A DNA stretch of 36,016 nucleotides from Hormoscilla sp. (GTDB lineage: Bacteria; Cyanobacteriota; Cyanobacteriia; Cyanobacteriales; Desertifilaceae): NCBI GenBank assembly GCA_051439505.1, contig JBFRWI010000119.1:1-36016 (forward strand), in the 5' to 3' direction. The notes under the pieces are model-generated. The model saw only the letters and a program-made list of their open reading frames with translations. It had not been told where the DNA came from and searched no databases. The position numbers were made by a program, and so were the translations under genes. Positions 11,280 to 33,708 of this stretch are shown here, piece by piece. The first letter of the stretch is position 1. Each line of letters begins with the position of its first letter.

Positions 11280-12470
11280 TTAACGATGCTTGCGAATGGG
11301 AGTGCCGCAAGGATAGGTGGCTACGGGTTCAAGCACGGTCTCGCCAACATTAACCAGTGGCTTTTCAGCAGATTTAATCTTTGCCGCTTGATAGTCTTGC
11401 CGCAGTTTGGCCATCATGGCTGGCAGCCGATCGTACAGTCGCTTCCGGGGACGGGGCGTGCATTTTTTCATCACGTAGGCTGTCATAATTGGAAGGGCGA
11501 TCGTGCTATCAGTGTAGCAGACAATGGTGCTGGGTAACTCATCGGGGTCAACTTTACCCCAACTGACGGCTTCGCTGGGGGTGGCACCAGATAAACCCCC
11601 CGTATCCGGACGGGCATCGGTAATTTGAATAAAATAATCGTGCCCCCGTTCTTCCAGTCCCAAAACTTCGTGCAACTGGGGTTGGGTTTGCAGCAGGAAG
11701 TTTTTGGGAGAACCGCCGCCGATAATTATGGCTGCGCTTTTACCTTCGATACCAGGAATGTCAGTAGCACGGGCCCCATAGGCGATCGCCGCTGTTTCAT
11801 TCACATCGATGGACGGATCGATAAATAACTGAGAACCTTCCAGGGCCATTGCTGCCACATTCATGCCAATGGAACTATCCCCAGGAGAAGAAGTGTAGAT
11901 CGGCACGCCGCATTCATAGGCCGTAGCCAACAGGCAAGAATTCTGAATTCCCAAGCGCTTTTCCATCTCCCAGACATACTTACCCAGCAGATGGTGAAAC
12001 TCCGCCGTTCCCATCCGCTTCTGAAACGCGGGTGCCCGTAAAATCTCCCGAATGAACGCATCCGTTTCCAGCAGTACATCGTAGTCAAACACGATATCGT
12101 AAATGCGGATCCGTCCCTCTTCGCGCAGCTTCACATCATCCAAAAACGGACTACTCGCATACAGACTCATTCCCAACCCGTAATGCAGGTCGTGATAAAG
12201 ATTTGCACCCGTGCTGATCATCCAGTCAATGAAACCGTGGCGCATTAGAGGTGCGAGAATACCCACGCCAAAACCCGCTGGTGTCATGGCACCCGACAGA
12301 CTCACGCCGACAGTCACGCCCTCTTGCATCACATCACGACTCAGTAAATGACAGATTTCCCGCAGACGCGCCGAATTGTATGCCGTGAAATAGCCGTCGA
12401 TTAAATCAACGACTGTGATTTCATTGGGCATGGGGGCGGGTGCGATTTTGCGATCGAGCAATTTTGACAT
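11280..12470 (-). CDS. speY: Deoxyhypusine-synthase-like homospermidine biosynthesis protein
   Basis: SGAMTPAG, STGANLYHD, SSPGDSSIG, GGGSPKNF and GGLSGATPSEAVSWGK (catalytic Lys) motifs; SD GGGAG. Confidence 0.88.
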   Translation of the reverse strand: MSKLLDRKIAPAPMPNEITVVDLIDGYFTAYNSARLREICHLLSRDVMQEGVTVGVSLSGAMTPAGFGVGILAPLMRHGFIDWMISTGANLYHDLHYGLGMSLYASSPFLDDVKLREEGRIRIYDIVFDYDVLLETDAFIREILRAPAFQKRMGTAEFHHLLGKYVWEMEKRLGIQNSCLLATAYECGVPIYTSSPGDSSIGMNVAAMALEGSQLFIDPSIDVNETAAIAYGARATDIPGIEGKSAAIIIGGGSPKNFLLQTQPQLHEVLGLEERGHDYFIQITDARPDTGGLSGATPSEAVSWGKVDPDELPSTIVCYTDSTIALPIMTAYVMKKCTPRPRKRLYDRLPAMMAKLRQDYQAAKIKSAEKPLVNVGETVLEPVATYPCGTPIRKHR

Positions 12471-12689
12471 TTTGATACTCCCAGAAACGCGAACAGCATA
12501 AAAGACAGTTCTTCGTAAATTTCACAAATAGCCAAATCTAGGCTTTTTGGGGATGTACCCCAAAAGCCCCATCGAACCGAGCTATTGCACATTTAGACGC
12601 ACCTTAAGTACGCCTCATTAACAGCCGATAATTCTCGCCAGTAAGCTATGAACTGGCTACGCAAGTTGCAAATTTCTAGTTAAAGTAGA

Positions 12690-12773
12690 TGCACCGCTTG
12701 ACCGACCCAGTTCGCGGATCCGGCAGGTAGCCGGAAATAGCGAACCTTCACTTGCAGGCCGGTCAGATGGTAC
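12690..12773 (-). promoter_or_regulatory. Nested RNA stem-loop in the speY leader
   Basis: UGACCGGCC/GGUCGGUCA, GGUUCGC/GCGAACU and UCCGGC-UACCU-GCCGGA nested helices. Confidence 0.6.
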
Positions 12774-12840
12774 TAGGCGCTTCACAGCGATCGGTCCAAG
12801 ACAGCCCGGGATCGCACCTACGCTTGCGCTTCAATTTCAT
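12763..12840 (-). CDS. Putative 25-aa leader peptide MKLKRKRRCDPGLSWTDRCEAPSTI upstream of speY
   Basis: ATG at 12840, TGA at 12765-12763; GGAGAGG upstream inside a GGATACC/GGTATCT hairpin; extended -10-like TGcTACAGT at 12942-12934. Confidence 0.5.
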   Translation of the reverse strand: MKLKRKRRCDPGLSWTDRCEAPSTI

Positions 12841-13019
12841 TTCCAGATACCAAAGACCTCTCCAAGGGTATCCGGTTAAAGCTGGGAAGTCCAATTTCTG
12901 TTTTGTCCCACGAATATGACTACAAGCATTTTTACTGTAGCACTTATCTTACCCCGCGATCGCCCTAAATTCACCCAATTTTTCAGCCAGTCATCTCCGC
13001 AAAAATAGCTAACTGCCTC

Positions 13020-13541
13020 TTATCCCGTCATTTCCTTGACAGATTTGTCGTAGCTATGGTATACATCTGCTCCGAAGCAGACAAAAATTACCTGGGCGAT
13101 CGCCCGATCGCTTTCCAGGAACTGCTTCACTTCCCTGAGGGCGATCGGGGCTGCCCGATCCACCGGAAATCCATAAGCACCGGTGCTGATCGCCGGAAAA
13201 GCAATTGTTTTTATCTCATAGGACTCAGCTATTGTCAAGCAACTGCGGTAACATTGTGCTAGCAGTTCCTCTTCTGAGTTGTCGCCACCCCGCCAGACGG
13301 GACCGACTGTATGGATGACCCATTTTGCGGGCAGGTGATAACCGCTAGTAATCTTCGCTTCACCGGTGGCACAACCGTTGAGAGTCCGACATTCTGCTAA
13401 AAGTTGGGGTCCGGCGGCACGATGAATGGCACCATCAACCCCGCCACCACCGAGTAGGGAGCTATTAGCAGCATTGACAATAGCATCCACCTGTTGTTTG
13501 GTAATATCCCCTTGCAGGATCTTGATTCTTTCTAGTACCAT
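13020..13541 (-). CDS. ymdB: Macrodomain O-acetyl-ADP-ribose deacetylase (YmdB-like)
   Basis: GDIT...[33 protein letters not shown] and [12 protein letters not shown] motifs. Confidence 0.92.
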
Positions 13542-33047: not shown

Positions 33048-33209
33048 CCTCTCTAGGCGCGAAGCGCCAGGGAAGCACGCTTCGTGCTTACTGCGAACCG
33101 CATAACCGGTACTAGCAAAGAATAACACCGGTGTTAACTGAGGAATTTTCGGTGTGAAATGGTTTAACTCCTATTGCCTATTCTCCCAATCTGTGTTAAC
33201 GTAACCTAA

Positions 33210-33335
33210 TGTCGTCGGTTCTGATGGGGAACAGCCATCAGAGGTAACGGGGAAAGTTCGGTGCAAGTCCGGCGCTGTCCCGCAGCTGTGAGCAGACCAG
33301 TCAGTCTGTAAGTCAGAAGGCCCGCCGACGCAATG
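33210..33335 (+). promoter_or_regulatory. Cobalamin riboswitch
   Basis: ggttctgatgg..ccatcaga.gtaacggggaaagttcggtgcaagtccggcgctgtcccgcagctgt...aagtcagaa.gcccgccga (B12 box); upstream of hupE, DUF1636 and cobW. Confidence 0.92.
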
Positions 33336-33708
33336 CCAAGTAAATTAAGCATCTGCGAGGTACGGATGATGAGCATAAGTGAATTTCTATTGGTCCAACT
33401 CAGGCGGCGGCCCCTGGGCATATTTCTCTGCAAGTACCGATGCTAGGGACGCCAGACCACTTTACCCAGACTTAATAGAGAGATGACGCCAGATGGGGGT
33501 GCAACTGCATCCTTTGCGGTCTGCCATGGAGTCAGTTGGACTTTTCGGCCAGGACGGTCCCACCATTTCTGCTAGTTGGGGTCCAGTCTGCTGTCTCTGC
33601 CAAACTGCTAGCAAGACAAACCAGTCCTAAATTGTAAGGTCCCTTACAGTTTACTTTCTGCTTGGGTGAATTCTGCCAATTATCGGCTTGGAAAACATAT
33701 ACCCTAAA

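Follow-up and report, generated by a model that had tools for sequence, protein, structure and literature searches.

Upstream of speY, the gene for a deoxyhypusine-synthase-like (DHS-like) homospermidine biosynthesis protein, the cyanobacterium Hormoscilla sp. carries a conserved element, made up of a short reading frame and covarying RNA helices, which in all probability acts as a cis regulator of this gene. It lies in a stretch of 36,016 nucleotides (the window) for which an initial annotation, made from the letters alone, had proposed an undescribed cyanobacterial leader element, and that proposal stands: there is a conserved leader peptide with covarying RNA that is tied to speY-type genes. 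Comparison of homologous loci points to a promoter, a translated leader of 43 codons (uORF1), two hairpins (H1 and H2), a strict linkage to DHS-like synthases and, in a subset of loci, a second reading frame with a Pro-Pro-Pro (PPP) motif that overlaps the start of speY (putative uORF2) and that the initial annotation did not contain. On whether these parts form a two-part, cis-acting translational sensor, by which polyamines feed back on the enzyme that commits to homospermidine, we are evenly divided, the ligand, direction and output step being those that we infer below.

In the literature searched (subscription papers lay outside its scope) we found no description of the leader element, nor of the control of the homospermidine level in cyanobacteria, and we know of only few metabolite-sensing leader peptides in bacteria. 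The element adds two unannotated small reading frames to many genomes and provides a widespread, defined candidate (it was recovered in 172 of the 401 cyanobacterial genomes sampled, using a broad profile search) with the exact residues and codons to mutate, from which a polyamine biosensor could be derived. Two questions arise from it: can the ribosome of a bacterium detect homospermidine or agmatine through the peptide that it is making, and is bacterial EF-P-dependent pausing at polyproline tuned by polyamines, in the way known for eIF5A in eukaryotes?

Coding selection on the leader peptide

On the minus strand of the window uORF1 spans 12763..12894, as follows from the list of open reading frames and the comparison with homologues, and starts with TTG at 12894. 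The 25-codon frame (12840-12763) that had been put forward initially is present but forms the tail of this longer frame: its ATG at 12840 is the internal codon 19, with the frame opening 18 codons earlier, and reads ATG in only 88 of the 149 unique leaders of our pooled set (the loci are kin, so that counts over them are not independent), and it was rejected as the start. The start codon is TTG in 133, GTG in 10 and ATG in 3 of the 149 leaders, and was not found in 3, i.e. 143 start with UUG or GUG.

The conserved core of the peptide (12772..12852, minus strand) comprises 27 codons, for which pN/pS values and residue counts were obtained over 94 unique versions. In the frame of uORF1 pN/pS is 0.17 and stops occur in 0/94 cores, compared with 1.70 and 1.87 and stops in 86 and 88 of the 94 cores in the other two forward frames; the value of 0.34 for the antiparallel reverse frame is expected, because its third positions are shared with those of uORF1. 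By this comparative evidence the 43-codon leader is a real, translated coding sequence. Its core follows the pattern W15-x-L17-x3-L21-x3-R25-x2-D28-P29-x2-S32-W33-x-D35-x-C37-E38-x-P40-S41, in which W15, L17, L21, P29, C37, E38, P40 and S41 are invariant in 94/94. The N-terminus is variable and in-frame indels are confined to the N-terminal part, so that conservation in this short cis reading frame, with eight invariant residues within positions 15-41, is weighted towards the C-terminus over the length of an exit tunnel.

Constraint at the end of the core extends to the codon: Ser41 (12774-12772) is encoded by AGT in 149/149 leaders, unlike Ser32, for which all four TCN codons are used. Slow decoding by tRNA-Ser(GCU) is our guess as to the reason; pairing of the Pro40-Ser41 codons with the 3' arm of H2 was considered and rejected on account of third-base mismatches (C/C, C/A and G/G). 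The stop codon, in turn, may be TGA, TAA or TAG and follows at 1-61 codons past Ser41, with at least one codon in between in 149/149 leaders and Pro-Ser directly before the stop in 0/149. A fusion of uORF1 with the synthase by frameshift or read-through was rejected since their distances are not constant modulo 3.

The initial annotation had attributed the sensing of arginine to a KRKRR run that includes an AGG codon, and hungry Arg codons in this run could in principle slow the ribosome under arginine shortage. A basic block is indeed conserved (R25 in 90/94 and R23 in 86/94 cores), but position 24 is Lys in 59/94, AGG occurs in this block in 8 of the 149 leaders, and the Arg codons are mostly CGG (CGG 152, CGC 49, CGT 46, AGA 44, CGA 43, AGG 8), with all four CGN codons in use at the conserved Arg positions. 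As the block moreover lies 16-19 codons before the hairpin, which is too far to open it, we regard an arginine attenuator as very improbable.

The peptide matches no family of Pfam or NCBIfam at E <= 10, a search of the ESM Atlas returned no usable match, and the relatives recovered from sequence databases (9 and 21 matches) are all unnamed or 'hypothetical'. In four loci (L254, L255, L258 and L259) repeat-like insertions directly behind Pro-Ser-Thr have altered the tail and the spacer and left the core untouched; in L259 the extended frame stops on the start codon of the synthase. A degenerate leader was encountered at L111 (G375:C84:44829-44906), with the promoter box and the N-terminal half still recognisable, the C-terminal core gone and speY 453 nt downstream.

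Promoter and initiation site of uORF1

The extended -10 box TGCTACAGT (pattern TGnTAnnnT) lies at 12934..12942 on the minus strand, where it had been placed initially, and would put the transcription start near 12927. The same pattern is found 20-65 nt upstream of the uORF1 start in 120 of 146 leaders, against 13.9 in shuffled sequences. A Shine-Dalgarno-like (SD-like) site (12905..12911, minus strand) precedes the UUG by 10 nt, and in 55 of 81 non-redundant leaders the start is preceded at 9-14 nt (mode 13) by a match to RGGD, which is lacking in 17; for comparison, the SD is located at 7 nt in 53 of 87 speY starts. The predicted pairing of the SD-like site, calculated with an assumed anti-SD sequence, is only slightly better than that of shuffled sequences (-4.63 vs -4.27 kcal/mol).

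For one homologue (L106) the leader and speY are covered by public RNA-seq contigs. One contig of X6 begins at 1449, close to the predicted promoter, and extends into speY (depth 47, against 10 upstream); a contig of X10 begins within the uORF and likewise reaches speY (120 vs 31), and in X1 and X3 contigs span everything. This is only a weak hint that leader and speY are co-transcribed there, since neither strand nor start nor level can be read from contigs. In the window the promoter is preceded at 78 nt by the end of a gene for a macrodomain O-acetyl-ADP-ribose deacetylase (13020-13541, minus strand; NF001664), a neighbour that, of the upstream regions examined, recurs in that of the closest relative (L082) alone.

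RNA structure within and behind the leader

The region 12930-12670 has a more stable fold than shuffled sequences (z = -3.87; 0/200 shuffles as stable) and contains two helices on the minus strand that show covariation and that RNAalifold recovers independently. H1 (12843..12875) lies inside uORF1 at codons 7-18; its 7 named pairs are paired in 97% of cells and 3 of them have changed on both sides. H2 (12699..12765) consists of a lower stem, a conserved 9-nt bulge, an upper stem and a variable top, and 9 of its 17 pairs have changed on both sides. Over both hairpins this amounts to 12 of 24 pairs, with 96.1% of cells paired, a value reached in 0/500 shuffles and compared with 18-46% in slid controls. 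No Rfam family matches the leader region at the gathering score (three chance hits, E 1.5-7.9). Selection on the amino acids, covariation of the helices and the absence of a known Rfam motif were among the checks that the initial annotation had suggested.

The details of that proposal fared less uniformly. The arms of H1 (GGATACC at 12873-12867 and GGTATCT at 12851-12845) and the GGAGAGG between them (12863-12857) had been located correctly, but the view of GGAGAGG as a hidden ribosome-binding site has to be given up: H1 is part of the coding region, the loop reads GGAGAGG in 4/149 leaders, and it ends 16 nt before the internal ATG. Likewise, the nested stem-loop (12765-12699) is real and covaries, but not as a switch anchored on the stop, as the stop moves and the hairpin begins 5-7 nt past the AGU of Ser41 regardless of it. 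An extension by GUACC/GGUGC over the last codons finds no support across the homologues (permutation p = 0.25). At 12698-12690 (minus strand) the window lacks six bases that follow H2 in the same-genus loci L082 and L001, which weakens the next hairpin (H3) and creates the GUACC/GGUGC pairing in the window.

The bulge of H2 (12756-12746, minus strand) has the consensus CUGYAACUNNAG, kept across the leaders of both synthase paralogues described below, and could be a site for a protein or a ligand. A scan of the rest of the genome with short patterns of H2 was uninformative (176 matches, 96 for the control).

H2 is followed by a weak hairpin (H3) and an AAAUUU run (12668..12689, minus strand), both stronger in many homologues, where a purine-then-U run often stands behind a small hairpin. 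Counts of A[AG]TTT are raised in the 45 nt that directly follow H2 (45/74, vs 10/74, 10/73 and 14/70 further down), whereas strict terminators were scored after H2 in only 15/84 (8/82, 9/77 and 2/66 in later windows) and no intrinsic terminator was called within the window of this study. The initial statement that no U-tailed terminator is visible needs a correction, in that homologues do have an A/G-rich and then U-rich run behind the stem, though seldom as a strict terminator. H3 and its run may form a weak terminator or an RNase E site, the run being in agreement with the signature of RNase E sites in cyanobacteria (A at -3, U at +2) as given in 10.1101/2021.07.27.453982. Masking of the leader 3' end raises the mean predicted pairing of H3 from 2.9 to 4.1 bp (45 loci). 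A conserved alternative fold was sought and none was found: an antiterminator between the 3' arm of H2 and H3 was rejected with a mean pairing of 0.65 bp, and pairing of the leader tail with H3 does not exceed that of permuted sequences (p = 0.25). Two more hairpin-like inverted repeats in the spacer (12657-12637 and 12570-12541, minus strand) are partly shared, by same-genus loci only.

Loci in which only 74-98 nt separate the leader from the synthase have a different hairpin in the place of H2, and in the fold predicted for them without a ribosome, leader codons are often paired with the SD of the synthase, namely the Pro-Ser codons in L108, L109 and L232 and the Ser32-Trp33 codons in L114, L225, L237, L243, L245, L250, L252 and L266. 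When the leader is masked, the energy needed to open the ribosome-binding site is lower by at least 1 kcal/mol in 8 of 17 such loci, higher in 3 and unchanged in 6, a result that leans weakly towards occupancy of the leader meaning ON and that masking by its construction is biased to give. It bears on an induction of the kind known for SpeFL, in which the nascent peptide and the ribosome would capture agmatine (or arginine) and the stalled ribosome would open H2 or free the SD of the synthase, thereby turning speY on; stalling at low polyamine would have the same effect. The acidic and aromatic residues of the core could hold an amine, and SpeFL and orf34 offer a precedent, including a hairpin over the 3' end of the leader (10.1101/604074; PMC6386406, as far as described there). 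The masking effect is absent or reversed in 9/17 loci, however, the genome has no Rho over the cut-off, the stop is not fixed as it is in the termination arrest of SpeFL, and the overlapping uORF2 could hardly be anything but repressive, so that we consider substrate induction unlikely, albeit the most serious of the alternatives to product feedback.

Linkage to two families of synthases

The initial search recovered the peptide upstream of speY in 35/94 loci, including 14/14 loci of the family to which the window belongs and 21/36 other cyanobacterial loci (2 of the 15 misses are truncated). In the broader sample of 401 genomes a DHS-like gene is present in 242, and in families with the leader the tallies of gene and leader agree (37/39 and 37/39, 22/39 and 22/39, 3/7 and 3/7); families that lack the gene also lack the leader (0/39). 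There are also families with a speY-like gene and no leader (f6, 15/17 vs 0/17; f31, 22/23 vs 0/23; f51, 7/7 vs 0/7), and the first-paralogue loci without it include Trichormus, Cuspidothrix, Scytonema, Microcoleus, Okeania and Floridaenema.

Where the leader occurs, a DHS-like gene is next downstream on the same strand in 97/97 strong hits among 100 loci (from which L112 and L113, weak chance hits, and the degenerate L111 were excluded), next downstream in 46 of 48 further loci, the exceptions being one contig end and one apparently disrupted leader, and in 24 of another 25 parsed loci (L260, L261, L269 and L271 of that set were unparsed). In L223 (G717:C75:1624-1746) and L247 an intact leader is followed by apparently inserted DNA in place of the synthase gene. 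The downstream gene encodes a member of either NF001980 or NF002699 (the G44G synthase family), paralogues that are 31% identical. Among cyanobacterial loci of the second paralogue 16/17 have the leader; outside the oxygenic cyanobacteria it was found in 0/44 first-paralogue loci (three with <150 nt upstream) and in 0/63 second-paralogue loci.

Two genomes (G288 and G603) have one leader ahead of each paralogue, and the RNA behind the leader differs between the two paralogues. The leader may be a portable sensor, attached to two distantly related synthases and coupled to different RNA outputs. One may ask whether uORF1 does not simply encode a small trans-acting protein, e.g. a partner of SpeY, that happens to share the transcription unit, with H2 and the U-run ending or stabilising its mRNA. 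The strong conservation of the amino acids, the promoter of its own, the U-run after H2 and a spacer to the synthase of up to 1.1 kb would all suit such a protein, but for a free protein there would be no need of the fixed Ser codon, a start that is never optimised, a free extension by 1-61 residues and a hairpin at a fixed distance from a codon, which are constraints at the level of the mRNA, nor of separate leader copies for two paralogues in one genome. We find this explanation improbable and retain that of a cis regulator.

In Nostoc, Calothrix, Brasilonema and relatives (L243-L263 and L270) the leader is part of a cassette with the order ornithine aminotransferase - leader - G44G synthase. 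One copy of it resides on a plasmid record (L255), which suggests that the cassette is mobile.

An overlapping reading frame at the start of speY

The speY gene (11280..12470, minus strand; 396 aa) matches NCBIfam NF001980 with 574 bits (cut-off 450), its closest named relatives stem from Hormoscilla genomes (94%), and its SD, GGGAG, is located at 12482-12478 (minus strand). Translation and homologue counts indicate a second, putative reading frame of 32 codons, uORF2 (12401..12499, minus strand), which starts with an AUG 29 nt before that of speY and overlaps, out of frame, the ribosome-binding site and the first 23 codons of speY. Its Pro-Pro-Pro (12431..12439, minus strand) corresponds to codons 11-13 of speY read in the +1 frame.

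Among 87 non-redundant speY 5' ends an AUG is present at exactly -29 in 38 and absent from 49; all loci that have it also have uORF1, except for one that is truncated. The frame is open to +40 in 38/38 loci with this AUG vs 20/49 without it, and PPP is encoded in 36/38 vs 5/49, with the remaining two of the 38 keeping PP. The putative uORF2 thus combines a conserved proline run with an open frame started upstream, as expected of an EF-P-dependent polyproline uORF. A PPP in uORF2 requires the speY codons CCC-NCC-CCC, and indeed both Pro codons of speY are CCC in 38/38, the residue between them may be Ser, Ala or Thr but has an NCC codon in 36 loci, and the Pro codon that comes after is free to vary. 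Four speY codons in a row have their third bases fixed at 0.94-1.0, whereas of 118 four-fold columns in the gene body no more than 2 attain 0.94. On a quick tree the -29 AUG requires 10 changes, at least 3 of them on well-supported branches; a test on independent pairs of AUG and PPP had only 3 pairs (2 in the same direction, 0 opposite, p 0.5).

No SD was found for uORF2, and no equivalent was seen at the second paralogue in the 28 starts located of 31. Pairing of the C-run with the SD of speY was rejected as the reason for CCC-NCC-CCC (more than 2 bp in 2/38), as was a second -10 box, TATGCT at -30, whose last base is T in only 17/29. In two speY starts of Oscillatoria/Laspinema (L119 and L125) an ATG at -32/-33 and the PPP-encoding codons are kept with two stops in the +1 frame; these possibly represent a decayed uORF2. 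By its position uORF2, where present, can hardly be other than repressive.

Since both x-P-S(AGU) in uORF1 and PPP in uORF2 are tRNA- and EF-P-dependent motifs, and the genome encodes EF-P, the two frames might read the general state of translation, i.e. EF-P activity, the supply of Pro-tRNA or Ser-tRNA(GCU), or Mg2+, like the mgt leaders of Salmonella; by the account in PMC8092293, runs of prolines cause stalling when EF-P is missing, and mgtP reacts to charged tRNA-Pro. Such a reading leaves unexplained why W, L, L, P, C and E residues are invariant at 3-26 positions upstream of the motif and why the link with homospermidine synthases is exclusive, and we give it little credence beside that of a polyamine-responsive element.

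Polyamine feedback as the favoured reading

The initial annotation had taken putrescine as the substrate of SpeY. According to PMC13625781 the homologues tested so far couple two agmatines to G44G, an activity that is not assigned here to either paralogue; the mechanism in cyanobacteria was not known before, as that paper itself states, and SpeY is cited there as essential for homospermidine and for diazotrophic growth in Anabaena. As two agmatines are joined, agmatine, G44G and homospermidine are the candidate ligands.

Under the feedback reading, the weak UUG/GUG start and the distant SD would let the loading of uORF1 with ribosomes rise with polyamine, as in the polyamine modulon of E. coli, and the nascent core from W15 to S41, about one exit tunnel long, would pause the ribosome in elongation at E-x-P-S(AGU) rather than at the stop. 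The paused ribosome would cover the foot of H2, which begins 5-7 nt further on, and shift the RNA behind it, which at long spacers could lead to termination or to RNase E cleavage at the AU/U-run, and at spacers of 74-98 nt to an altered ribosome-binding site. Where uORF2 is present and help from EF-P runs short, its ribosomes would pause at PPP, at a point 32-40 nt into speY, thereby blocking the translation of speY. The net effect would be that SpeY is low when homospermidine is high. We prefer such product feedback, again at even confidence, over substrate induction because uORF2 is repressive by position, because the features of the uORF1 start imply that the leader would be translated more when polyamine is high, and because the eukaryotic parallels repress (by way of PPW and PS-stop motifs, as described in PMC11550727). 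In E. coli, UUG/GUG starts and distant SDs confer stimulation by polyamines, and homospermidine acts there as well, by the accounts in PMC4405209 and PMC4951125.

In favour of the feedback reading count the selection on the peptide, the fixed AGT, the movable stop, the fixed position of H2, the covariation, the synthase linkage and the statistics of uORF2. Against it stand the absence of a conserved alternative fold, the rarity of strict terminators, an SD-like pairing barely above that of shuffled sequences, the short-spacer folds that lean to ON, the whole families with speY-like genes and no leader, and, for uORF2, the missing SD, the loci from which it is absent and those that keep PPP without the AUG. 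For an inhibition of bacterial EF-P by polyamines we found no paper in the literature searched. A fuller version, which we put forward more tentatively still, is by analogy a bacterial feedback circuit of two uORFs that converges on the logic of AZIN1 and HOL1: a leader with a near-cognate start would read homospermidine by its loading and its Pro-Ser(AGU) pause, and the overlapping PPP uORF would read the interference of polyamines with EF-P.

Comparison with known leader systems

As described in 10.1101/604074 and PMC6386406, SpeFL and orf34 resemble the present element in that a short leader ORF with a conserved C-terminal part and a hairpin over its 3' end lies 200-500 nt ahead of the gene for a polyamine enzyme; SpeFL itself has 34 aa and rare Arg codons at 12-13, arrests at termination in response to ornithine (UAG, RF1) and depends on Rho. 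uORF1 is set apart by these described features: it has 43 aa, a UUG start, a movable stop of any of the three types instead of a fixed UAG, no constraint to consecutive rare Arg codons (AGG in the 8/149 leaders mentioned above) and no Rho, and belongs to another phylum and to other enzymes, the genes downstream being DHS-like synthases of NF001980 or NF002699 and not the ornithine decarboxylase speF. From the sequence comparisons it looks like a new leader-peptide system that would work like SpeFL and yet lacks its defining features, and like a candidate ribosome-based polyamine sensor.

The polyamine modulon of E. coli shares the UUG/GUG start, and its SD at least 10 nt from the start may have a counterpart in the SD-like site of uORF1; in the accounts of PMC4405209 and PMC4951125 these features belong to the main gene, whose output they raise, whereas here they would be on the leader ORF, which by analogy could invert the sign of regulation. 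Eukaryotic AZIN1 (PPW) and fungal HOL1 (PS-stop) are alike in their proline pause motifs (here x-P-S and PPP) and weak uORF initiation, but act by scanning, queuing and eIF5A as described in PMC11550727, and bacteria have EF-P and no scanning, so that the likeness is one of analogy only; a Pro-Ser-stop of the HOL1 type is found in none of the 149 leaders. The uORF of the odc1 motif in alphaproteobacteria, as presented in PMC8632094, also overlaps the start of a polyamine enzyme out of frame; it is UUG-started, has 11 aa, starts 5 nt before the main start and comes with a pseudoknot, whereas uORF2 has an AUG at -29, about 30 aa and a conserved PPP. The proline-rich and acidic uORFs mgtP and mgtQ of Salmonella are similar in being small and in remodelling stems in cis according to how fast they are translated, but are, in the description of PMC8092293, much shorter, part of a Mg2+-transport operon and devoid of a long conserved core.

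Genome context

The absence of Rho that had been assumed initially agrees with the search of the genome of the window (G000, 93% complete), in which no match to TIGR00767 over the cut-off was obtained; for nspC, too, there was none over the cut-off. The leader is present once in this genome, which further encodes arginine decarboxylase (speA, C41:5762-7639), one arginase-family ureohydrolase (C164:7276-8193), a 636-aa frame with two spermine-synthase domains (C79:4576-6066) and EF-P (C175:28361-28909; coordinates given in list order). Apart from the leader, the window contains a cobalamin riboswitch at 33199-33343 on the plus strand (Rfam RF00174, 65.6 bits).
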